From assembly GCA_039648975.1 (NCBI GenBank), contig JBBWZK010000425.1, positions 272 to 64,271 on the forward strand: 64,000 nucleotides of DNA, given 5' to 3'. Position numbers and translations under genes: made by a program. Source of the DNA: Blastocatellia bacterium. GTDB lineage: Bacteria > Acidobacteriota > Blastocatellia > UBA7656. The notes beneath the pieces are model-generated. The model worked only from the letters and a program-made list of their open reading frames with translations, was not told the origin of the DNA and made no database searches. Positions 42,556-60,887 of this stretch are shown here, in pieces. Numbering within the stretch: position 1 is the stretch's first letter; every line of letters starts with the position of its first letter.

Positions 42556-42963
42556 ATGAATGCCACACAGCCCGCTCTGCCCTTCGACTCATCGCCGCCA
42601 CTGGCTTCGCGCCGGCGCAAGCGCAACGCCAGCACGGAGGCGACAGCACAGGCGCGCGCCGACGCATTCGACAAGATCAAGGGCAAGCGCGGCAAGCGCC
42701 ATCTGCTGATTCTTCATGCGATCGCCCAGCACGGCCCGATGACGACGCGGCAGGTGTTGCGATGTCTGGTTGCGCAAGGCCATTTGCCACCAACTGCCGA
42801 GCGCAATCAAGTCAGCCCGCGTCTCTCAGAGATGGCAGAGGCTGGCTGCGTCGAGGCCCTCGACGAACTGCGCGTTGTCGGTGATGATACGCCGGCGACC
42901 GCCTGGAAGATTACACCGCGCGGGCAGTTGCTGATTGAAGATTCGGAGCCTGAGAGGAACTGA
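42556..42963 (+). CDS. winged-helix DNA-binding protein (MarR-like fold), hypothetical
   Basis: LILHAIAQHGPMTTRQVLRCLV...VSPRLSEMAEAGCVEAL. The stop overlaps the start of the Toprim protein gene. Confidence 0.6.
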   Translation: MNATQPALPFDSSPPLASRRRKRNASTEATAQARADAFDKIKGKRGKRHLLILHAIAQHGPMTTRQVLRCLVAQGHLPPTAERNQVSPRLSEMAEAGCVEALDELRVVGDDTPATAWKITPRGQLLIEDSEPERN

Positions 42964-44180
42964 TGGCTGCGGCTACGGCATCACTATACGCGCTCACTGA
43001 GCGCGACTATGAACGGCTTGCACGGTCGACGATCCCGCGCCCCATCGCTGATCAATTCTGCTTTCGAGTTGACGACATCGAAGGTGCCACGCAGGTCGGC
43101 CAGAGGCTGACCGCTGAACGCCTGATGCGCGGCATCATCTTCCGTTATTTCTCGCCCTGGGGCGGCCACGAGCGCGAGCGCCGGTTGCGCCGTGATGTGC
43201 CGGATGCGAGTGGCGATGGCAAATACATTGGCCCGCCTGACCGCCCGCCGCTGTTGTTCTTTCCCTTGCTTGTCAATGATGAACAATTCCGCGCCTGGCT
43301 TGAAGATTCAGCGATTCCGATTGTGTTTGTCGAAGGCGAGAAGAAGGCGCTCGCTCTGATGCGCATCGCTCTCGCCAATGCCGTTGGTGGCCGCCCGCCG
43401 TTCATCGTCATTGGGCTGGCCGGCGTCTGGTGTTGGAAGCGCAAAAACGGCCCGCTGCCTGACTTCGATCTGATTCCGTGGCGAAGCCGCCAGGTCTCCA
43501 TCTTCTTCGATTCCAATGTCCACACAAACGCCAAAGTCCGCAGCGCGCGACAGGCGCTTGCTGATGAACTACATCACAATCGCAGTGCAAAGGTCTTCTT
43601 TGTAGAGATGCCGCACGACTGTGAGCTGAACGGGCCGGATGATCTTGCTTACGCTCACGGTGATGAGGCCGTACTCGATTGCATTGAACAGGCAAAGCCG
43701 GCCATCAAGCCGACCGCGCAGCCGCAAAAAGAAACGATAGAAGAGCGCATCAGGCGCGGTGTTTTCCTTCGCGCCGCCGTCGCCAATGCACAGGCCGCGC
43801 CGGATGCGAGCGAACTGGCAAAGCAGACGCTCGGCGCGAAGGTGTGGCGGCGGCTGGCCGTGCTGTGGGCGCAGGCCGGCAAGCTCGAAGCCGAAGAGCG
43901 CGACCTGTTGTTCACCCTGCACGCGATGAGTGATGGCGAAGACGAGTTTGATTTTTATTACCTTGATCTTTACAGGCTGTTATTCCCATGCGACAGCAGC
44001 GAACTCGACGCCGATGGCCGGCTCACGAGCAGCGCCCGGCAAAGGATTCGCCGACGCTTCGACAATCTCGAAAGGGCCGAGCAGCAAGGCGGCATCCAAT
44101 TCGCAATAGTACGCAAAGGATCGAGAGACGATGACGGGCATCATTATCCCTCGCATATTCGTCTCTTGTCTCTTGGCTAG
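42963..44180 (+). CDS. Toprim-domain replication/primase-like protein (DUF3854-like)
   Basis: IPIVFVEGEKKALAL, VIGLAGVWCWK and QVSIFFDSNVHTN, a pattern typical of plasmid/ICE DUF3854 proteins. Confidence 0.7.
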   Translation: MAAATASLYALTERDYERLARSTIPRPIADQFCFRVDDIEGATQVGQRLTAERLMRGIIFRYFSPWGGHERERRLRRDVPDASGDGKYIGPPDRPPLLFFPLLVNDEQFRAWLEDSAIPIVFVEGEKKALALMRIALANAVGGRPPFIVIGLAGVWCWKRKNGPLPDFDLIPWRSRQVSIFFDSNVHTNAKVRSARQALADELHHNRSAKVFFVEMPHDCELNGPDDLAYAHGDEAVLDCIEQAKPAIKPTAQPQKETIEERIRRGVFLRAAVANAQAAPDASELAKQTLGAKVWRRLAVLWAQAGKLEAEERDLLFTLHAMSDGEDEFDFYYLDLYRLLFPCDSSELDADGRLTSSARQRIRRRFDNLERAEQQGGIQFAIVRKGSRDDDGHHYPSHIRLLSLG

Positions 44181-44204: not shown

Positions 44205-44663
44205 GTGACGGATCCACAATACAGCCGGAGCAAGCAAGCCGCCTTTGAGCGTGCGGTGGGAAAATTTGTTGAACTCAAAACTGGAAGCCCGGTCAAGCGC
44301 CGTCACAAGCCGCCGCGAAACCCCTTCAAAGAAATCAAAGACGGTTGGAGCCGAGTCGAGGGCGCTCTGCGTGCGACTGTCGAGCGGATGCGCGCCGAAG
44401 GGTACGAAGACTGGGCGATCTGGCAAGATTTGGAAAAGCACCTTCCGGCAGAGTTCATCGCTTTCCTACGGTCTGAATGCAGTGCAGCGCCGGTCGCCAA
44501 CGAGCCGGAAATTTGCGCCGCCGAGGTGAAACCTAATCATGAAGAGATAAAGGTTTCACCTGACCCGCCGGAGTCGTCTGCCGACCCCTCTGACGAGGCC
44601 CTAAAATCAGCCGAAAACAGGCCGGTTTCGGGGCAAATGCCAGGTTTCAATTTTGGGCATTAA
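44205..44663 (+). CDS. hypothetical protein (GTG start)
   Basis: 152-aa ORF downstream of the Toprim gene. Confidence 0.5.
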   Translation: MTDPQYSRSKQAAFERAVGKFVELKTGSPVKRRHKPPRNPFKEIKDGWSRVEGALRATVERMRAEGYEDWAIWQDLEKHLPAEFIAFLRSECSAAPVANEPEICAAEVKPNHEEIKVSPDPPESSADPSDEALKSAENRPVSGQMPGFNFGH

Positions 44664-44668
44664 TATAC

Positions 44669-44697
44669 TTGACTCATACGGGATTCTATAGTAGAAT
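44669..44697 (+). promoter_or_regulatory. strong sigma70-like promoter upstream of the transposase
   Basis: ttgact, exactly 17 nt, then tagaat. The -10 ends 7 nt before the ATG at 44705, which implies a leaderless or near-leaderless mRNA. Confidence 0.5.
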
Positions 44698-44704
44698 TTG
44701 AGGT

Positions 44705-45694
44705 ATGGAAAGCCAAGAGCGAAATTTCCCGCAGACCTTGTTAGAGGCGATTCGATATTTCAGCGATGCTGACAACTGCCTCAGCTTCATGATCAAGATT
44801 CGTTGGGCTGACGGCCCGACCTGCCCGCGCTGCGAATCCAAGCAAGCCAACTTCATCAAGACTCGCCGCCTGTGGATATGCAAGGACTGCAAAAAGAATT
44901 TCACGGTTAAGCAAGGGACTATCATGGAAGATAGTCCGATTGGTTTAGACAAGTGGCTCAGTGCGATATGGATGATTGCCAACGATAAGAATGGGATAAG
45001 CTCTTATGAAATCCATCGTGGTCTTGGCATCACTCAGAAGTCGGCATGGTTCCTGCTGCATAGAATCAGACTGGCAATGCAGAATGGCAGTCTTGAGAAA
45101 TTCTCTGGCCCAGTGGAAGCGGACGAAACCTATATCGGCGGTCTTGCGCGCAATATGCACAAGAGCAAGCGCGCAGCGAAGATCAAAGGGACTGGCGGCA
45201 GCGGTAAAGCCATCGTCATGGGCATTCTTGAGCGCAGCGGCGACGTTCGCACTAAAGTTATAGAGAATACCAGCCGTGAAACCTTGCATGGCGAGATACG
45301 GGCGCATGTCGCACTCGGTGCGGAAGTCCACACCGATGCGTGGCCAGCTTATCAAGGGCTTTCTCCTGATTATGTTCATCAGGTCATCAACCATGCTATT
45401 GAATACGTCAGAGGCCATGTTCATACCAATGGAATAGAGAACTTTTGGAGTTTGGTTTCGCGCTGTCTCAAAGGAACCTATGTTTCTGTGATGCCCTTTC
45501 ATCTGTTCCGCTACTTGGATGAGCAAGGCTTTCGATTTAATAACCGCAAGTTTAACGATTCTCAACGATTCCTGATGGTCTGTAATCAGATGTCAGGCCG
45601 TCGCCTCACCTACAAGCAACTCACAGGTAAAACGTTGATGCGGGATAGCAATAATCCGCGATTTGGATTCGTGGATACGCTATTTCCGCTATAG
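44705..45694 (+). CDS. IS1595-family (ISXO2-like) transposase
   Basis: N-terminal zinc ribbon CPRC...CKDC, an HTH region, and DETYIGG in the DDE domain. No terminal inverted repeats were found around it. Confidence 0.85.
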   Translation: MESQERNFPQTLLEAIRYFSDADNCLSFMIKIRWADGPTCPRCESKQANFIKTRRLWICKDCKKNFTVKQGTIMEDSPIGLDKWLSAIWMIANDKNGISSYEIHRGLGITQKSAWFLLHRIRLAMQNGSLEKFSGPVEADETYIGGLARNMHKSKRAAKIKGTGGSGKAIVMGILERSGDVRTKVIENTSRETLHGEIRAHVALGAEVHTDAWPAYQGLSPDYVHQVINHAIEYVRGHVHTNGIENFWSLVSRCLKGTYVSVMPFHLFRYLDEQGFRFNNRKFNDSQRFLMVCNQMSGRRLTYKQLTGKTLMRDSNNPRFGFVDTLFPL

Positions 45695-45703
45695 AGAGGA
45701 TTG

Positions 45704-45856
45704 ATGAAACCAATCATTCGACCACAGCCCGAAGACACGCGAACGCCTTACCAACGGTTTGAAGACCTCGCAAGGCAGGTGCTGACAGTGCCGAAGAAAG
45801 AAATAGATAAGAGGCAAGAAGAGTACGAACGAAAGAAGAAAAAGAAAAGGAAGTAA
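45704..45856 (+). CDS. small basic-tailed hypothetical protein (50 aa)
   Basis: Manual ORF MKPIIRPQPEDTRTPYQRFEDLARQVLTVPKKEIDKRQEEYERKKKKKRK with RBS agagagga. Confidence 0.3.
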   Translation: MKPIIRPQPEDTRTPYQRFEDLARQVLTVPKKEIDKRQEEYERKKKKKRK

Positions 45857-46303
45857 CTATTCACCTCGACCTTGTATTTTAATGATTAGTGGGTAATCTG
45901 CTATCTCTTGCCAATCATTGCCTTCAGCAACTTCCCTTAGAGACAGCTTCAACGACGCGTTTCCTAGAGGCATTACAGGAAATCCACCAATTTGCATCGT
46001 GGTTCGCATATTGGGTTTATCAGGTTGAAATTGAAACGGCAACGAGACATCAAGATAGGTTCGATCTTCCTTATTTAATTGGACACGCCCCTCAAACTGT
46101 TTATTTTCATCTCCATCTTCCATGCGATAAACCGCCAAAATATACCATCTAAAAGGTACAGCCCGATCAGAGTCCTCTTTGATTTCTAGCTCTGGGGGCA
46201 CTGCAAGATTTATAACCTCTAGAACAGAAATCAGAGAAACAGTATTCTCCTCCTGACTTATAATCACCCTTTCGCAAGGCAAGAAAACAAGAAGTCTTGG
46301 CAT
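45857..46303 (-). CDS. hypothetical protein (AT-rich cassette, gene 4)
   Basis: 148-aa ORF, MPRLLVFLPCERVIISQEENTVSLISVLEVI.... Lies in a visibly lower-GC segment. Confidence 0.6.
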   Translation of the reverse strand: MPRLLVFLPCERVIISQEENTVSLISVLEVINLAVPPELEIKEDSDRAVPFRWYILAVYRMEDGDENKQFEGRVQLNKEDRTYLDVSLPFQFQPDKPNMRTTMQIGGFPVMPLGNASLKLSLREVAEGNDWQEIADYPLIIKIQGRGE

Positions 46304-46315
46304 GATCTTTATTCT

Positions 46316-46714
46316 TTAGGCTGCTGTTTCCAGAGTTGCAGGCCCTCTCTGCAAAGGCGAATAGTTAAGGCGTATAGAACCCATTCTTTGGCCTACAGAA
46401 GCACTATTAGCAATAGATATGGTGATTCTATGGCTTACCTGAACTGGCAATACTTTTTGCGCAGATGGTACGTATGATTCAGACCACAGGCCAGCGCGCT
46501 TTAACTGGTCAACAGGATTCCAGTCTGCGGGCGGTCGAGTCGCATCGCTAAACCACACCATACCAGACTCTATCCATTTTTGTCGTAACTCAGCGTGGCT
46601 CACCTCATAATCGTCTAATTCAAATTCAACCCCACAGCTAGGGCAAATATAAAACCCCTGCGGAGGTCGAGCCATCTTATCGAATCCACAAACCGGACAA
46701 TTGTAATAAGGCAT
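46316..46714 (-). CDS. zinc-ribbon protein (CPxCG...CPxC), hypothetical (cassette gene 3)
   Basis: MPYYNCPVCGFDKMARPPQGFYICPSCGVEFELDDYE. Confidence 0.6.
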   Translation of the reverse strand: MPYYNCPVCGFDKMARPPQGFYICPSCGVEFELDDYEVSHAELRQKWIESGMVWFSDATRPPADWNPVDQLKRAGLWSESYVPSAQKVLPVQVSHRITISIANSASVGQRMGSIRLNYSPLQRGPATLETAA

Positions 46715-46723
46715 TGTTTCCTC

Positions 46724-47020
46724 CTATAGACAAGTATCAACGAAGTACTTACGCGGATTGCTTCTAGTAAGTCTAAAATACGTTCCTATAAATCCATCCG
46801 CGTGAAGAACTCCAATCTCACAAGTAACGTTATTGAATCGCACAGTAGCGCCATCTCTGGCTCTCACTCTTTCCTCTGTATTAGCATCTAATGGGCAATT
46901 CATAAATTCTATTGCAGCGGACTCATATTCGGCCTCGGTATCAAATGCAAATTCACGCCTCTCTATAATATGCCTTTTAAAATGGTTGGCCAAATCCATA
47001 AAGCCGTGTATAGGCGGCAC
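46724..47020 (-). CDS. small hypothetical protein (cassette gene 2)
   Basis: 98-aa ORF, HFKRHIIERREF...GATVRFNNVTCEIGVLHADGFIGTYF. 9 nt upstream of gene 3. Confidence 0.6.
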   Translation of the reverse strand: MPPIHGFMDLANHFKRHIIERREFAFDTEAEYESAAIEFMNCPLDANTEERVRARDGATVRFNNVTCEIGVLHADGFIGTYFRLTRSNPRKYFVDTCL

Positions 47021-47151
47021 TCCATTAGTCCTCCCTTATATTGTACTACCCTGGTATAGACATATAAAGCGGCGGCTATCATACTACGACGAGCGGGCGA
47101 AGTCTAGCGTAAGGTGAGTCACGGCAAAAAGCATGGGGACTAAATGCAAGC

Positions 47152-47901
47152 CTAGCCATGCAGTCTCAAATATGAGCCGTAGCTTATTGTTTTGACTCCG
47201 ATGATTAAATGTACGTCATGTATATTTTCTCCATCTGTCAATGGAGTTAACAAGTGATCCGTTTCAATGGTAAGTTTTGTAATCAGACTATCATCTTTTA
47301 GCAGGCAGTAAAAAGGGTCTTCGTCGCTTGTAGGAGTCTGACCAGCAACTTCCTGACACTCCTGCGGCATACGCAAGGCGTCAAGTAAAACCTTTATCCG
47401 ATTGTCAATGTCGCCACCGCCACTAACCAAATTACCCGGCTGGTCGCGTCTGAGAAACAGAACGTCAAGGGCGCATGCGTCCTCATCCCCGCGACCGCCG
47501 ATCAATGGCACAAATCGATAACCACAACGTGCATAATCATCGGCGAATATATCTATGAATAGCCGCGCATCGGGTCTATCACTTTCTCGATCTCGCAAAT
47601 ATCGGCGTAAACGCGGATCAGCCTTCCATAGCTCTCTCAGTTGCGGATGTAGGGTTTTTCTGATGCGATGCTTGTCTTCGTTCCGAGTTAGTGATCGACC
47701 AGCGGCTGGCAGTCTCCCCTGATAAACGAGGCGAAATTCCATATCAGTAGCGCCCTCAATTCCCGGCCACGAATCATAAACAAACTCCTGACGCTGCGGC
47801 CATTGGGATACTGGCACATCTACAGAATATGAGTCAAGTATATCATTGCCCAATTTTGATACCTGGGAAATGCCTGCATCCTCTGTAGATGCAACAGACA
47901 A
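47152..47901 (-). CDS. RusA-like endonuclease-fold protein (cassette gene 1; start uncertain, TTG 47901 or ATG 47742)
   Basis: GGGDIDNRIKVLLDALR...LLKDDSLITKLTIE matches the RusA DxDNxxKxxxDAL...DD signature. Confidence 0.6.
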   Translation of the reverse strand: MSVASTEDAGISQVSKLGNDILDSYSVDVPVSQWPQRQEFVYDSWPGIEGATDMEFRLVYQGRLPAAGRSLTRNEDKHRIRKTLHPQLRELWKADPRLRRYLRDRESDRPDARLFIDIFADDYARCGYRFVPLIGGRGDEDACALDVLFLRRDQPGNLVSGGGDIDNRIKVLLDALRMPQECQEVAGQTPTSDEDPFYCLLKDDSLITKLTIETDHLLTPLTDGENIHDVHLIIGVKTISYGSYLRLHG

Positions 47902-47931
47902 TTTTGCGGATTTTCAGAAATCCGCAAAAAT
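47901..47931. promoter_or_regulatory. 12-bp perfect hairpin/palindrome in a divergent intergenic region
   Basis: ttttgcggattt tcag aaatccgcaaaa. There is no U-tract on either strand, so an operator is more likely than a terminator. Confidence 0.5.
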
Positions 47932-48031
47932 CAGCTACCAATCGCGCGCGCCCTGAAATGCCCGGCGGATCGCCGCCAATCCGGTGTCCATCAGCGAATC
48001 GTCGAGTGAAGCTTGATTATGCGGGGTGGTG

Positions 48032-48943
48032 ATGACAGCAGCAGTTTATGAGTCTAGTCCTATAAAGCGAAAGCGGCGCGGCTTCGATGCCATTGCGACG
48101 GTGCGCGACGCGCTTTATGACGTGCTGTCGGCAGAGCACCCGATGACCGTGCGCCAGGTCTTCTACCGGCTGGTGAGCGCCGGCGCCATTGAAAAGACGG
48201 AGGCCGAATATAAATCAACCGTCTGCCGCTTGCTTGGCCGCATGCGGCGCGAGGGCGTCGTTCCGTTTGGCTGGATCGCTGACAGCACGCGATGGATGCG
48301 CAAGCCGTGCACCTTTTCAACCCTCGAATCAGCGCTCGAACTGACGGCGCAAACCTACCGCCGGGCGATGTGGGACAATCAGCCGGTCTACGTCGAAGTG
48401 TGGCTCGAGAAAGATGCGCTGGCCGGCGTGCTGATGGATGAAACCGAGAAGTGGGACGTGCCGCTGATGGTGACGCGCGGCTATCCGAGCCTGTCTTATC
48501 TCTACTCGGCAGCCGAGCAGATCACGGCGATTGAAAAGCCGGCTTACCTGTATTACTTCGGCGATTACGACCCGTCGGGCGTAGACATCACGCGCGCCGT
48601 CGAGAGCGGCATCCGAGAATTTGCCCCTGACGCGGAGATTTATTTCGAGCGCGTCGCGGTGACGCCGGCGCAGATCAGGCAGTATGGATTGCTCACGCGA
48701 CCGACGAAGAAAACCGACTCGCGCAGTAAGAACTTTGAGGGCGAGAGCGTTGAAGTCGATGCGATCCCGCCAGCGATGCTTCGCCAGATGGCCAGAGAAT
48801 GTATTGAGCAACACATTGACGAAGACGCGCTGGAACGCCTGCACCTTGCCGAGCAGTCCGAGCGCGAGAGTATGCAGATCATCGCCGATGCGTGGCGCGA
48901 CGGCAGGCTGCGCTACGTGCCAGAAGAAATCGGTGAATCGTGA
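48032..48943 (+). CDS. stand-alone Spo11/topoisomerase VI subunit A-like protein (winged helix + Toprim)
   Basis: MTVRQVFYRLV resembles the R-x-(I/V)-(F/Y)-Y catalytic-Tyr motif. VEVWLEKDALAGVL supplies the Toprim Glu. TRGYPS and YYFGDYDPSGVDI match DxDPxG. Confidence 0.7.
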   Translation: MTAAVYESSPIKRKRRGFDAIATVRDALYDVLSAEHPMTVRQVFYRLVSAGAIEKTEAEYKSTVCRLLGRMRREGVVPFGWIADSTRWMRKPCTFSTLESALELTAQTYRRAMWDNQPVYVEVWLEKDALAGVLMDETEKWDVPLMVTRGYPSLSYLYSAAEQITAIEKPAYLYYFGDYDPSGVDITRAVESGIREFAPDAEIYFERVAVTPAQIRQYGLLTRPTKKTDSRSKNFEGESVEVDAIPPAMLRQMARECIEQHIDEDALERLHLAEQSERESMQIIADAWRDGRLRYVPEEIGES

Positions 48944-49100
48944 TGGAAGCAAGTATGAAAACTGTTTTGACAACGCCACAGCCGGTCGCCGTGCAATGCC
49001 GCAACTGCCGGCGCGCGCTTTCGCTGGGCGCGAGTGGCCGCGCCTGGTGCTATCGCTGCTGTCTATGGACTGAGCTTCAAAGTGTGAATGAGGTTTGAAG

Positions 49101-49460
49101 ATGAATGAACCATCAGCGTCAGATCGAATCCGTCTGCTCGAAAAGGAACTGGCAGAGATGCGCGTGCTGCTCACCGAAGTGGCGCGCAAGCAAGCCTGGC
49201 CTCAGTATCTCACTCGCAACGAGCTTGCCGAGTTGTTGCAGATCAGCCCACGCACGATTGACGATTGGGTGAGCGAGGATCGTATTCCATACCACAAAGC
49301 CGGAAACTCGACGCGCTTCCTCATCAGCGAGATCGTGCAGTGGACAGCCGGGCGATGGAGTCCGGCGAAGCAAGCCGCGCCGGCGAAGCCAAAGAGCAGA
49401 CCTGCAAGAAAGCGCCGTGCGCGTACCGGGGATGACAAACAGCAACTGCGGGCCTTATGA
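49101..49460 (+). CDS. xis: excisionase-family HTH protein
   Basis: LTRNELAELLQISPRTIDDWVSEDRIPYHKAGNSTRFLISEIVQW. Directly upstream of the integrase gene, which overlaps it. Confidence 0.75.
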   Translation: MNEPSASDRIRLLEKELAEMRVLLTEVARKQAWPQYLTRNELAELLQISPRTIDDWVSEDRIPYHKAGNSTRFLISEIVQWTAGRWSPAKQAAPAKPKSRPARKRRARTGDDKQQLRAL

Positions 49461-49507
49461 TGTCGCCGCTTCCAAACAGGCGGCTGCAACCGAGATGGAG
49501 GCAATCC

Positions 49508-50581
49508 ATGTCAGTCAGAAAACGCAAGCACCGATGGCACTACGATTTTCAGATTTGCAGCGTCCGCCATCGCGGTGCGATTCCAGAGGCACGCAACAAA
49601 GCCCAGGCCGAGCGCGCCGAAGCCAGGATCAAGCTCGATCTTTTCGAGCAGAGATTTGGTGACGGCATCAGCAAGAACTTCGCCGAGTTCATCGCCGAAG
49701 TATATGAGCCGGCGGCAAAGTCAAAACGGAGCTATCACACGGCGGAAAATCTTCACATTCGCACGGTGACGGCTCACTTCAAAACTTACGCGCTCGCCGA
49801 CATCAGCCTGATGGCCGTCGAGCGGTTCAAAAGAGAGCGGCTTGCCACGCCAGTGCAGAGTAGTGGCAAGCCGCGCACACCGGCGACGGTCAATCGCGAG
49901 TTGGGGGTTCTATCGCAGATCCTTGCCATGGCCTGTGATAACGGGTTGCTGCAATCGAACCCGTGCAGCAAGGTCAGGCGGCTGCGCGAAGACAACACCC
50001 GGACGCGCTATTTGACCGAAGCCGAAGAAGAGCAATTGATGACCGCAATCACCAAACCCTATGAGCGATTGCGGCCGCTGATCATTCTCGCGTTCGGCAC
50101 CGGCATGCGGCAAGGCGAGATTGCCGGCCTGACCTGGCCGCAGGTCGACTGGCGGCGCAATCTCATCATTGTGACGAACACCAAGAGTGGCGATGATCGC
50201 ACGATCCCGATGAATGAAACCGTCAAGGATTTGCTCGTCAGGCTCTGGCGCGAGTCCGACCAGTTGAACGCGAAGGTCTTCCAGATAAGCGCCGACGTGG
50301 TCTGTACCACATTCCACAGGCTTGCCCAGCGCGCAAAGCTTATAGACTTCCGCTTTCACGACCTGCGGCACACGTTCGCAACAAGGCTCGCGCCGCACAC
50401 TGACGTCTTTACGCTGGCCGCGCTATTAGGCCATAAGACGCTGGCCATGACGGCGCGTTACACGCACCCGACAGACGATGGCAAGCGCCGGGCAATCGCT
50501 GTTTTGAATACCCTGGCGCGCAAAGCTGGTCAAGAAAATGTCACAATTGACTTTCCGGCACAGGTAAGTAAGGCCGGCTAG
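49508..50581 (+). CDS. int: tyrosine-type site-specific integrase
   Basis: ATG at 49508 follows ggagg. C-terminal catalytic signature FHDLRHTFATRLA...LLGHKTLAMTARYTH. The ORF also opens earlier, at 49457. Confidence 0.9.
   Translation: MSVRKRKHRWHYDFQICSVRHRGAIPEARNKAQAERAEARIKLDLFEQRFGDGISKNFAEFIAEVYEPAAKSKRSYHTAENLHIRTVTAHFKTYALADISLMAVERFKRERLATPVQSSGKPRTPATVNRELGVLSQILAMACDNGLLQSNPCSKVRRLREDNTRTRYLTEAEEEQLMTAITKPYERLRPLIILAFGTGMRQGEIAGLTWPQVDWRRNLIIVTNTKSGDDRTIPMNETVKDLLVRLWRESDQLNAKVFQISADVVCTTFHRLAQRAKLIDFRFHDLRHTFATRLAPHTDVFTLAALLGHKTLAMTARYTHPTDDGKRRAIAVLNTLARKAGQENVTIDFPAQVSKAG
50528..50545 (+). repeat. 18-bp perfect repeat (ggtcaagaaaatgtcaca), right copy, inside the int 3' end
   Basis: Identical to 19453-19470. 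Confidence 0.7.
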
Positions 50582-58353: not shown

Positions 58354-60855
58354 ATGATGAAACGATTCATTAAGCGATTATCAGGCGTCCCGCCGCAGGT
58401 GGCGATCATCCTCGTGCTGATCGGCATTATCGGCGCAGCGGGCGCGATTTTATTGTTCAAACATACAGAACCAAAAACCGATGCTCAGGTGCTGCCGCGC
58501 GCCGCGCGCCTTGAGCGCATGGACGGCAATGTTGATGTCGCGCAGGCGCTCAATCAAGCAAGCAACGAGCAACTCAGTTGGCAAGACGCGACCGTGAATG
58601 CGCCGCTCACGGTCGGCCAACGCGTCTTTGCGCGCGATAATTCGCATGCAGAGATTGCTTTCAGCGGGCGCAACTATGCGCGGCTGAATCCGGGCACAGC
58701 CCTCGACGTGCTGTCGCTTGCCGACCAGCGAACCCAACTTGCCTTGCGTAGTGGCTCGGCTATCTTCGATGTAGGTGATCTTACAAATGGCGAATTGTAT
58801 GAAGTCGCCACGCCCTGCGGCGCGGTGGACTTCACTGAGCCGGGACTTTATCAACTCGGCATCGGCGATGACGGCAACACCACCATCAGTGTCTTGAGCG
58901 GCCTGGCGCAGGTCGTCGGCCTCGCCGGCTCAGGCGAGATCAGCAAGGGCGAAGTGCTGACGCTTGCCAGTCAGGTTGCCGCGCAGGCGGTGATGGCCAA
59001 GCTTGCGCCGGATACGGCAGGCAATATCCTTGATGATTATTACGGCTATCGCTATCCGCACAAGTATGACGGGCGCTACCGCAATTACGACACCTATCTC
59101 GACAACCCTGACTATTATGACGCCTATAGTCAGTCAACCAGTTATCAGTATGTAGCCGAAGATGTGCCGGGCCTATATGACCTCGACGAATACGGCGACT
59201 GGCAGGACGTTAATGGGTACGGTCGCTGCTGGGCTCCGCGCGTCGAGGCCGATTGGTCGCCGTACCGGCAGGGTTATTGGGATGTCAATGACGTGTGGGG
59301 GCCGACCTGGATATCGAGCGAACCGTGGGGCTATGCGCCGTACCACTATGGCCGCTGGGCTTATGCGAATCAGCAACGCTGGGTGTGGGTGCCTGAAGAT
59401 TGCCGGACGAACCCTGTCTATGCGCCGGCCTTAGTCGCTTTCGTTCCCATACAGCAATCGCAGATTGCCTGGGTGCCGCTCGCGCCGGGCGAACGCTACG
59501 TGCCGCGTTACTACGATGCGAGCTTTGAGCCGCGCTATCTGGCGTCGCCGCAGATCGTCGAAGAGTACGTCAACGTGCAGCGCACTTATGTGAACATGAA
59601 TTACACGACAGGCGTGACGGTCGTGCCTGTGCAGGCGTTCACCCGGCGGATCGACCGGAATGTCATCGTGCCTACCAATCCGCAATGGATGCAGCAGGCG
59701 CAGGCGGTGAGCGATCCGTATGCGGTCGCCGGCGTGCGTCAGGTGGCCATGCAGGAAGAACGCGCGCAGCGCAAACAGGCGCGCCGCGAGATGCAGGCGG
59801 CGATGTTCAACAGGCCTGTAGTCACGAGCGTTGCGCCGGTCGTGCCTGGGCAGGCGAATCCTGCGCAGGCCTTGCAGTACCAATCGGTGACGGAAAAGCA
59901 GAAGCGAAACAAGCTACAAGTTGAACAGAGCGGCCAGGTCGTCGCCGCGCAACGCGCCGATGGCGTGCCGCTTGCCGGCCAGCAGGCGGCGCAACAGGCG
60001 ATGGCTCAACAACGCGATCAGCGCATCGCTGAGTTGAGAACTCGCCTGCAACAGGGCGACAGATCGGCTAAACAGGAATTGCGCCAGTTGAAGCGCGAAC
60101 GCCAGGAGCAGCCGGCAGCCGTTCAAGCGCCGCAGCAAGCCATGACGCCGAAACAACAGCGGCGCTTCGAAAGACAGCAGCAACCCGCCGCACAGCAGGC
60201 TGCGACACAGCAGCAGGCCGTGACGCAGAAACAACAGCGCCGTCTCGAGCGGCAACAGCAGGCCGCCGCGCAGCAGACGCAAGTCAATCAGCAGCGCGAG
60301 CAACGCCGCACGCAAAAGCAGGCCGAGCGCCAGCAGGTAATGCAACAGCAACAGGCGCAACGTGCCACGCAGCAACAGCAGGTGGAATCGCGCCGCCAGC
60401 AAAAACAACAGCCTCGCCAGCAACAGGCCGTGCAGCATCAGGCGGCACAGCAGTCGCAAGTCAAGGCGCAACGCCGCGCCGAGCGCCAGCAGCAATCCAT
60501 GCAACAGCAACAGCGACAGGCGGCGGCTCAGGCGCAAATGAATCAACAGCGCCAGCAGATGCGTGCGCAGCGTCAGCAGCAAGCCATGCAGCAACAGCAA
60601 GCCGCGCAATCGCAGATCAAGGCGCAACGCCGCGCCGAACGCCAGCAGCAACAGCAGCAAGTGATGGTGCAGCAACAGCGCCAGCAGCGTCAGCAGCAGG
60701 GCATGCAACAGCAACAACAGATGCGCCAGCAAGAGAAACAGCAGCGCCGTGTCGAACGACAACAGCAAGCCGCGCCACGCCCGCCGGCTATGATGGGCCC
60801 ACCCGTGCCTCAACAGAGCAAAGCTGAACGCAAAGCGGCCCGGCGCAATCCGTAA
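58354..60855 (+). CDS. membrane-anchored protein with a FecR-like region, a Trp/Tyr-rich segment and a long Gln-rich C-terminus
   Basis: N-terminal TM segment. WAPRVEADWSPYRQGYWDVNDVWGPTWISSEPWGYAPYHYGRW. About 300 aa of Q/R/A-rich repeats (KQQRR[FL]ERQQQ, AQRRAERQQQ). Confidence 0.75.
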   Translation: MMKRFIKRLSGVPPQVAIILVLIGIIGAAGAILLFKHTEPKTDAQVLPRAARLERMDGNVDVAQALNQASNEQLSWQDATVNAPLTVGQRVFARDNSHAEIAFSGRNYARLNPGTALDVLSLADQRTQLALRSGSAIFDVGDLTNGELYEVATPCGAVDFTEPGLYQLGIGDDGNTTISVLSGLAQVVGLAGSGEISKGEVLTLASQVAAQAVMAKLAPDTAGNILDDYYGYRYPHKYDGRYRNYDTYLDNPDYYDAYSQSTSYQYVAEDVPGLYDLDEYGDWQDVNGYGRCWAPRVEADWSPYRQGYWDVNDVWGPTWISSEPWGYAPYHYGRWAYANQQRWVWVPEDCRTNPVYAPALVAFVPIQQSQIAWVPLAPGERYVPRYYDASFEPRYLASPQIVEEYVNVQRTYVNMNYTTGVTVVPVQAFTRRIDRNVIVPTNPQWMQQAQAVSDPYAVAGVRQVAMQEERAQRKQARREMQAAMFNRPVVTSVAPVVPGQANPAQALQYQSVTEKQKRNKLQVEQSGQVVAAQRADGVPLAGQQAAQQAMAQQRDQRIAELRTRLQQGDRSAKQELRQLKRERQEQPAAVQAPQQAMTPKQQRRFERQQQPAAQQAATQQQAVTQKQQRRLERQQQAAAQQTQVNQQREQRRTQKQAERQQVMQQQQAQRATQQQQVESRRQQKQQPRQQQAVQHQAAQQSQVKAQRRAERQQQSMQQQQRQAAAQAQMNQQRQQMRAQRQQQAMQQQQAAQSQIKAQRRAERQQQQQQVMVQQQRQQRQQQGMQQQQQMRQQEKQQRRVERQQQAAPRPPAMMGPPVPQQSKAERKAARRNP

Positions 60856-60887
60856 TGATTTGACCTGAGATGACCCATAAAAACGCT

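Follow-up and report, generated by a model that had tools for sequence, protein, structure and literature searches.

An IS1595-family transporter insertion sequence of a Blastocatellia bacterium very likely carries two independent cargo modules

Results

A 64,000-nucleotide stretch of contig JBBWZK010000425.1 from a Blastocatellia bacterium (GenBank assembly GCA_039648975.1), henceforth referred to as the window, contains an AT-rich segment holding a transposase gene and four minus-strand genes. The segment is apparently one recently inserted transposon of 3195 bp, and it is very likely that it represents a transporter insertion sequence (IS) of the IS1595 family carrying two independent cargo modules: gene 1, which encodes a RusA-fold nuclease-like protein, and an operon of genes 2, 3 and 4, henceforth referred to as the trio, which encodes a putative toxin, its putative immunity protein and a beta sandwich distantly related to DUF6941. 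A preliminary description of the window, made from the sequence without database searches, had instead read the four genes as a single conflict module of unknown type with the transposase as its neighbor. Features of the element are listed in Table 1.

Boundaries and composition of the element

The GC content between 44656 and 47850 is 0.464, compared with 0.562 and 0.575 in the 5 kb on either side. Other 3195-bp windows across the 64 kb have a mean of 0.572 (standard deviation 0.017, minimum 0.533), which places the segment more than 6 standard deviations below the remainder, and the 1-kb GC profile runs at 0.43–0.49 from 45 to 48 kb against ~0.57 outside. The AT-rich stretch reported in the preliminary description was thereby confirmed, and its reading as a horizontally acquired, compositionally foreign unit is supported. 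Its left bound of ~44660 agrees with the end of the IS at 44656; its right bound of ~47930 lies too far out, as the IS stops at 47850 and 47851–47930 belong to an interrupted open reading frame (ORF) of the host element.

An inverted-repeat search returned arms at 44632–44678 and 47828–47874, and the ends were then placed by comparison with related elements. The 47-nt repeat was rejected as the IS end because the clade consensus and the perfect 8-bp target-site duplication (TSD) fit its inner 23 nt only; the outer 16 nt and the duplicated 8-mer form an imperfect palindrome of the target. The terminal inverted repeats (IRs) start with GGCATTAAT and GGCAATGAT, i.e. with 5'-GG. Because the IR pair and the TSD enclose the transposase gene, a small ORF and all four minus-strand genes, these are treated as one unit, and the transposase is a component of the transposon rather than a neighbor of the cassette.

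The insertion lies exactly at the center of the imperfect palindrome, GGCAAATGCCAGGTTT followed by CAATTTTG and ATACCTGGGAAATGCC, within a coding region (44632–44655 and 47851–47874). Related elements have AT-rich TSDs, several of which resemble YTAnTTAG (CTACTTAG, CTTATTAG, CTAGTTAG, TACTTTAG and CTACTTAA). The palindrome-centered insertion and the partly shared TSD pattern among relatives together suggest a target preference. The interrupted host ORF reads as a truncated 152-aa frame (44205–44663), and in-silico excision of the IS with one TSD copy restored a host ORF of 182 aa; the insertion falls in its 3' part, within an integrative element.

Table 1 Features of the transposable element and its insertion site (strand "." where none applies).
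Feature	Position	Strand	Basis
Whole transposable unit, IS1595-family transporter IS	44656–47850	.	3195 bp; IRs, TSD and intact transposase
Left TSD copy, CAATTTTG	44648–44655	.	8-mer identical to the one abutting the other IS end
Left terminal IR, GGCATTAATATACTTGACTCATA	44656–44678	+	21/23 match to the reverse complement of 47828–47850
IS1595-family DDE transposase, 329 aa, apparently intact	44705–45694	+	Pfam matches
Small basic ORF, 51 aa (...YQRFEDLARQVLTVPKKEIDKRQEEYERKKKKKRK)	45701–45856	+	tblastn relatives beside the transposase 3' end
Gene 4, 148-aa all-beta sandwich, distant DUF6941 relative, third operon gene	45857–46303	-	AlphaFold2 (AF2) model and profile searches
Gene 3, putative immunity/antitoxin protein, CPCC-like CxxC...CxxC zinc ribbon, 132 aa	46316–46714	-	Sub-threshold PF14206 match; position after toxins
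Gene 2, predicted stand-alone toxin domain, 98 aa	46724–47020	-	Profile match to 8ey4_A; giant-toxin C-termini
Gene 1, RusA-fold nuclease-like protein, 221 aa from GTG 47817	47152–47817	-	AF2 fold and catalytic motif
Right terminal IR, reverse complement GGCAATGATATACTTGACTCATA	47828–47850	-	Pairs 21/23 with the left IR
Right TSD copy, CAATTTTG	47851–47858	.	Perfect 8-bp direct repeat of 44648–44655
Interrupted host-element ORF, 5' part	44205–44655	+	3' part at 47859–~47956

Transposase and family membership

The transposase matches the Pfam families DDE_Tnp_IS1595 (E 7e-40, positions 2–153 of 153) and Zn_ribbon_IS1595 (E 2.7e-13, positions 4–45 of 46). A promoter-like site at 44669–44697 (10/12 matches) lies upstream of its gene, with the -35-like TTGACT inside the left IR. 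The size of the element is within the range of cargo-bearing IS1595 subgroups. Its ends and the clade consensus GGTAATTATATACTTGAC are presumably similar to an ISNwi1-type end.

The element combines a DDE transposase bearing an N-terminal zinc ribbon, 5'-GG IRs and an 8-bp TSD, and both the TSD length and the 5'-GG ends are normal for the IS1595 family (PMC8101967). It also carries four genes and a small ORF as passengers between its IRs, as in the transporter IS (tIS) concept of Siguier, Gagnevin & Chandler 2009 (cited in PMC11891212). The container thus belongs to a recognized class of element, the transporter IS of the IS1595 family. The cargo sets it apart from the described examples: the passenger types named in the accessible literature comprise transcription regulators, methyltransferases and resistance genes, whereas here they are a RusA-like nuclease gene and a toxin/immunity/DUF6941 operon. 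No description of either as recurrent IS1595 cargo was found in the accessible literature, and the RusA-fold family and the stand-alone toxin/CPCC-immunity/DUF6941 operon appear to be two recurring cargo types as yet undescribed for IS1595.

Equivalents of the 51-aa ORF were detected by tblastn in ~25 related loci, near the 3' end of the transposase gene. They share the motif F..L...L.VP.SE... followed by a Lys/Arg-rich tail. Most are convergent with the transposase gene; the ORF is co-directional with it in the window element and in one relative (L083). From this recurrence, the ORF may be a third conserved component of the IS clade.

Related elements and independence of the two modules

Homologs of gene 1 were surveyed at 80 genome loci, mainly in metagenome-assembled genomes (MAGs) of Acidobacteriota, with additional loci in Nitrospira, Bradyrhizobium and Tardiphaga. 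Related elements were sought as an 8-bp direct repeat abutting an inverted repeat of at least 17/24. Among the 80 loci, 22 further complete elements of 1859–4274 bp were recovered, each enclosing gene 1 and the transposase between perfect 8-bp TSDs; their end consensus, shared with the window element, is GGTAATTATATACTTGACTAACCA. Additional cargo varies among the 22, and each element has a lower GC content than its own flanks. A 1859-bp element is found in the cultured Acidicapsa dinghuensis (L063, TSD CAAACTAT). One 4.27-kb cargo-laden element occurs at different sites in two MAGs (L024 and L034, 92.5% identical); the homology ends at the IS termini, and the TSDs and flanks differ, therefore these elements move with their cargo.

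The IS1595 transposase was matched at 32 of the 80 gene-1 loci, in 30 of them as at least 150 aa within ~2.4 kb of gene 1, and clustering of neighboring ORFs identified the transposase as the sole conserved neighbor. No homolog of gene 2, 3 or 4 was present at any of the 80 loci.

The trio was surveyed at 18 loci besides the window, with the gene order read by family hidden Markov models. A word-indexed search with gene 4 returned three relatives, and all three contigs carry gene 3 directly upstream and gene 2 where the contig extends far enough; further trio loci came from a metagenome scan (11), a viral-contig scan (2) and look-ups of distant representatives (3). The order 2-3-4 is kept in every evaluable locus with gaps of 0–12 nt or a 4-nt overlap, and in the window the gaps are 9–12 nt. 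None of these 18 loci gave a match to gene 1. An IS1595 transposase or an IS end adjoins the trio in about half of them, including L083, where a convergent transposase lies downstream, and the trio-linked transposases are 51–73% identical to that of the window. A complete 2299-bp element (L094, TSD AACCAATA/AACCGATA, 7/8) carries the transposase and genes 2-3-4 without gene 1, and in two others (L084 and L097) an IR lies directly upstream of gene 2. At a further locus (L093, 1268–3113), an IR-like pair surrounds the trio alone, with no transposase and no matching TSD; this arrangement may represent a non-autonomous derivative.

These distributions bear directly on the preliminary description, which had treated the four genes as one tightly spaced group and the transposase as a neighbor. 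The four minus-strand ORFs (249, 98, 132 and 148 aa) and the IS1595 transposase were all found where it had placed them, and the tight spacing holds for genes 2-3-4. A gap of 131 nt with two promoter-like sites lies between genes 1 and 2, and the 249-aa reading of gene 1 begins at TTG 47901, outside the element. A single four-component conflict system beside an independent IS1595 insertion would account for four adjacent, co-oriented, AT-rich genes, but the IRs and TSD enclose the transposase together with all four, the 131-nt gap interrupts the supposed operon, and gene 1 and the trio were never found together outside the window, at the 80 gene-1 loci or the 18 other trio loci. Such a system is consequently very improbable. 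The four genes are two independent modules, gene 1 and genes 2-3-4.

Gene 1 encodes a RusA-fold nuclease-like protein

GTG 47817 is the first start codon of gene 1 inside the element, and many homologs begin at the equivalent of M53. More than 400 homologs were found, none of them annotated by Pfam. The AF2 model (27 sequences) has a mean predicted local distance difference test (pLDDT) score of 82.5, and its top match in the PDB is DNA-bound RusA (2h8c_D, probability 0.92, TM-score 0.59 by RusA length, E 0.036). Named top matches among the BFVD viral structures are almost all RusA resolvases, with E down to 9e-4. In the family alignment, the motif G-G-D164-x-D166-N167 is invariant, and K170 and D204 are near-invariant. 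Alignment with hhalign places D164/D166/N167/K170 onto D70/D72/N73/K76 of RusA, and direct comparison of the DD motifs pairs D204 with D91.

Sequence-level searches were far less informative. Gene 1 has no Pfam, NCBIfam or PHROG match at E ≤ 0.1–1, including the Pfam RusA model (PF05866); hhalign against E. coli RusA aligned 18 columns only, with 6% probability; and the gene-1 profile missed RusA among PDB sequences, so that fold comparison was required. The protein shares with RusA (PDB 2H8C; PF05866) the fold identified by Foldseek and the D-x-D-N-x-x-K...DD constellation. It differs from the RusA of lambdoid prophages in being ~100 residues longer, with insertions, and in its setting: RusA is found in phage recombination and replication modules, gene 1 in insertion sequences and plasmid islands. 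Because of its additional length and its absence from the Pfam RusA matches, the protein is named RusA-fold rather than a member of PF05866. The RusA-like assignment in the preliminary description therefore holds for the fold and the catalytic motif, and the modeled protein is probably an active structure-specific, Mg-dependent DNA nuclease.

Two homologs were noted on plasmids without an IS, one in Nitrosococcus halophilus pNHAL01 (L110, 41506–42078) and one in Nostoc sp. CENA543 (L111). They are surrounded by genes for restriction endonucleases, HNH proteins, nucleotide-binding proteins and large ATP-binding proteins. On this gene content, defence-island contexts may be a further setting in which the RusA-like family is active.

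Genes 2 and 3 resemble a polymorphic-toxin warhead and its immunity protein

The motifs quoted in the preliminary description, HFKRH...RFN...GFIGTYF in gene 2 and CPVCG...ICPSCG...DDYE in gene 3, are both present. Searches of Pfam, NCBIfam, PHROGs and PADLOC returned no match for genes 1, 2 and 4 and generic zinc ribbons only for gene 3. A word-indexed protein search with gene 2 found only itself, and its relatives were obtained from the contexts of gene-4 homologs. Single-sequence PDB searches returned only noise, and look-ups by exact sequence matched nothing beyond the source sample. A gene-2 profile of three homologs matched PDB chain 8ey4_A at E 1e-4, and with 12 homologs the match improved to E 2.5e-11 (47 bits) over residues 10–80. 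This chain is the 88-residue toxin domain of a "PT-VENN domain-containing protein", and its partner in 8EY4, chain 8ey4_I (alone: 8ey3_A), is a "Cys_rich_CPCC domain-containing protein".

Annotated plasmids provided a stronger and independent line of evidence. There, the gene-2 profile matched the last ~95 residues of two giant proteins, a hemagglutinin-repeat protein of Rhizobium binae (CdiA/FhaB-like, 108 bits) and a DNRLRE domain-containing protein of Bacillus thuringiensis (46 bits), as well as a truncated orphan gene-2-like fragment in a polymorphic-toxin locus of Leptospira weilii (35 bits). The ORF following each of three plasmid toxins matches the gene-3 profile (E 4e-33 to 5e-23). All 12 gene-3 homologs match Cys_rich_CPCC (PF14206) at E ≤ 1 (best 2e-4), the sole family common to 12/12; in the five for which the matched stretch is shown, it spans profile positions 1–37 of 75, the zinc-ribbon half. 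Since the C-termini of giant toxins match gene 2 and the ORFs that follow them match gene 3, gene 2 corresponds, by homology, to a polymorphic-toxin warhead in free-standing form, and gene 3 to the matching immunity-type protein. The toxin/CPCC-immunity pair anticipated in the preliminary description is supported by these C-termini, the downstream ORFs and the 8EY4 homology.

The comparison with CdiA-CT/CdiI pairs (contact-dependent inhibition, CDI; CT, C-terminal toxin region), of which 8EY4 is an example, shows both likeness and difference. Gene 2 shares homology with the toxin domain, and the CPCC-like gene 3 starts 9 nt after it, as does a downstream immunity gene. Unlike CdiA-CT, gene 2 is free-standing, and it lacks the VENN pre-toxin motif, the repeats and the delivery region. 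The same is true of its relatives: gene 2 and 11 trio homologs are 90–125 aa long and consist of the toxin domain only, with no secretion or delivery region and no pre-toxin motif. Because the fused delivery region is missing, gene 2 is best described as a predicted stand-alone derivative rather than a polymorphic toxin. The module also differs in that it is IS-borne, that gene 4 is always attached and that gene 3 is extended at its C-terminus by a variable tail of ~50 residues. Judged by profile similarity, the gene 2/3 pair is of a known kind, a polymorphic-toxin CT/immunity pair. With the transporter IS also a known kind, the "unknown type" of the preliminary description was too strong.

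In gene 3, a conserved core of approximately residues 1–75 is followed by the variable tail. This low-conservation tail, ~40–60 residues in the stand-alone trios, is missing from the ~76–85-aa homologs that follow giant toxins. The tail might be a contact for gene 4. In the gene-2 family, H17 and R61 are invariant and T80 is near-invariant, and R61 is not conserved in 8ey4_A; from these residues, we infer only that the protein would fit a metal-independent nuclease. The accessible literature held nothing relevant on 8EY4, Cys_rich_CPCC or CPCC immunity, and one CDI review made no mention of a CPCC complex.

Gene 4 is a predicted beta sandwich and a putative distant relative of DUF6941

The AF2 model of gene 4 (pLDDT 94.4) is a nine-stranded beta sandwich. 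An exhaustive profile search gathered 1485 representative clusters, and 13 of 40 sampled relatives match PF22091 (DUF6941; best E 5.6e-7). Gene 4 resembles that family in length and in its all-beta character, but the window protein and its nearest relatives fall outside the model. No match to gene 4 was found on annotated plasmids, and nothing on DUF6941 was found in the accessible literature. The comparison provides no mechanism because the family has no known function.

Gene 4 is absent from the R. binae, B. thuringiensis and Leptospira toxin loci and, as judged from the loci compared, is specific to the stand-alone version of the toxin/immunity module. This distribution bears on the possibility that the trio is an orphan polymorphic-toxin cassette, in which gene 3 would guard against incoming CdiA/Rhs-type toxins and gene 2 would be a silent recombination reservoir. 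The homology of genes 2 and 3 to pairs of warhead and immunity protein in CdiA-like and other giant toxins is compatible with such an origin, as is the truncated orphan copy in Leptospira. On the other hand, gene 2 possesses a start codon of its own and an N-terminus, MP..T.GF, conserved across 12 homologs; evident purifying selection acts on it jointly with gene 4, a gene that true polymorphic-toxin loci lack; and no trio locus has an adjacent full-length toxin gene. An orphan cassette is accordingly improbable as an account of the trio.

Genomic surroundings

The IS lies within an apparent integrative element (42556–44180 and 49095–50581). On its left lie a DUF3854 protein and a Replic_Relax-like ORF; on its right lie a PHROG "DNA topoisomerase" protein and a tyrosine integrase (Phage_integrase, E 1e-31), whose ORF overlaps an HTH_17 excisionase-like one. 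A search of the 64-kb window for a tRNA gene that could be the attachment site of the island found none, and a Pfam scan of eight ORFs to the left of the island returned no match. The 305-aa topoisomerase-like protein (48026–48943, plus strand; PHROG 6247, E 2e-61) shows weak similarity to DUF2399 and also to the C-terminal, Toprim-like region of JetD from the Wadjet defence system. A palindromic, terminator-like hairpin occupies 47902–47929, in the restored 3' part of the host ORF. Further downstream, an 833-aa ORF (58354–60855, plus strand) has a Gln/Arg-rich, low-complexity C-terminal tail with imperfect 78-nt and 39-nt tandem repeats, and this tail gives rise to an AT-skew spike of 0.51, especially at 60000–60860.

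Discussion

By analogy with the family, the DDE transposase would bind the 23-nt IRs and insert the whole 3.2-kb unit by an 8-bp staggered cut. Its gene could be transcribed from the promoter-like site whose -35 element lies in the left IR, and the trio from the two sites ahead of gene 2. Because gene 2 has no delivery domain, the toxin would act inside the producing cell; it would be toxic in the cytoplasm and held back by gene 3, with gene 4 as a putative modulator or adaptor of the gene 2/3 complex. The trio may thus be a toxin-antitoxin (TA) addiction or stress-triggered module that penalizes loss of the element, the proposal that we favor, although with somewhat less than an even chance.

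A precedent exists in the TA pairs integrated in Tn3-family transposons (PMC7157771). As in those elements, a toxin and its putative neutralizer lie inside a transposon and plausibly stabilize the element or its replicon. The present case differs in the transposon family, in an origin from polymorphic toxins rather than classical type II TA systems, in the toxin-first gene order, in the lack of a DNA-binding antitoxin domain and in having three genes rather than two.

Several observations weigh against the interpretation of the element as an IS1595-family carrier of a RusA-fold nuclease gene and a toxin/immunity operon. For gene 1, approximately 50 of the 80 loci have no nearby transposase, and ~35–40 of these show no IS end; homologs on annotated plasmids are "hypothetical proteins" amid restriction, HNH and ATP-binding genes; and the pairwise divergences of gene 1 and the transposase are weakly correlated (Mantel r 0.29). 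For genes 2 and 3, the window gene-3 protein scores 16.0 bits against PF14206, below the cutoff of 24.5, as do all homologs whose scores are shown; the CPCC chains of the PDB match gene 3 weakly (E ~0.5) and over the zinc ribbon only; and the toxin-first order and the lack of a DNA-binding antitoxin depart from classical type II TA systems, with no helix-turn-helix, ribbon-helix-helix or AbrB domain in gene 3 and no TA-family match. For gene 4, Foldseek returned only generic Ig-like or lipid-/carbohydrate-binding sandwiches, with a TM-score of at most 0.54 in either normalization. Finally, two trio loci have no IS, one between peptidase and ArsR-methyltransferase genes (L085) and the other between a hydrolase gene and mutS (L114).

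Because many gene-1 loci lack a transposase and gene 1 also occurs on plasmids, its association with the IS is frequent and not obligatory. Solo gene-1 loci were also considered as decayed elements, and this was rejected: ~10 still have an IR-like site immediately upstream of gene 1, but an IR pair bounded by a TSD is seen at none.

The same loci bear on whether gene 1 is a transposition accessory that cuts the second strand or resolves branched or cointegrate intermediates, comparable to TnsA of Tn7 or TnpR of Tn3. RusA acts on branched DNA, the catalytic residues of gene 1 are conserved, and gene 1 accompanies the transposase as its sole conserved neighbor inside 23 elements bounded by IRs and TSDs, including minimal ones of 1.86 kb with little other content. 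Elements with 51–73% identical transposases nevertheless transpose without gene 1, as shown by the complete L094 and by the IR upstream of gene 2 in L084 and L097, and the solo loci and the weak co-divergence with the transposase also count against an accessory role. Such a role is fairly unlikely. Gene 1 is a frequent companion of the IS clade that is not needed for the mobility of the clade; since relatives are mobile in its absence, it is more probably a passenger than a factor in transposition.

Alternatively, the trio could be anti-phage abortive-infection cargo spread by the IS, in which gene 4 would sense infection and free the gene-2 toxin from gene 3. The three-gene architecture with its unexplained beta-sandwich partner would suit this role, as would the presence of the trio on mobile elements and on two provirus-classified contigs and a gene order and composition that differ from classical TA modules. 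A PADLOC-DB 2.0 search, which the preliminary description had proposed, returned no defence-model match for any of genes 1–4 (E ≤ 0.1), and the few long contexts (L085 and L114) showed no enrichment beside known defence genes. A defence function for the trio is consequently rather unlikely, if less so than an accessory role for gene 1.

A more ambitious combination would be an IS1595 clade in which a RusA-type junction nuclease is the partner of the DDE transposase, in cutting the second strand or resolving intermediates, and in which a three-component addiction module of CDI warhead, CPCC immunity protein and DUF6941 adaptor ensures retention. We regard this combination as a long shot, even more doubtful than the orphan cassette. 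If true, it would assign DUF6941 its first function and exemplify the domestication of inter-bacterial warfare toxins by insertion sequences.

Insertion sequences are usually regarded as carrying a transposase only. The two-module reading of the window element, a well-delimited unit with ~40 relatives, instead points to small functional modules being moved about by a clade of IS1595 elements. It would tie a contact-dependent/polymorphic-toxin warhead to an intracellular, IS-borne setting and offers a concrete genetic handle on DUF6941 through a gene-4 clade of 1485 representative clusters. The RusA-fold family of gene 1, with its more than 400 members, is uncharacterized, and natural pairs of elements with and without gene 1 are material for asking whether a junction nuclease aids DDE transposition. 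For annotation, these "hypothetical proteins" of Acidobacteriota MAGs would be recognized as mobile-element cargo.

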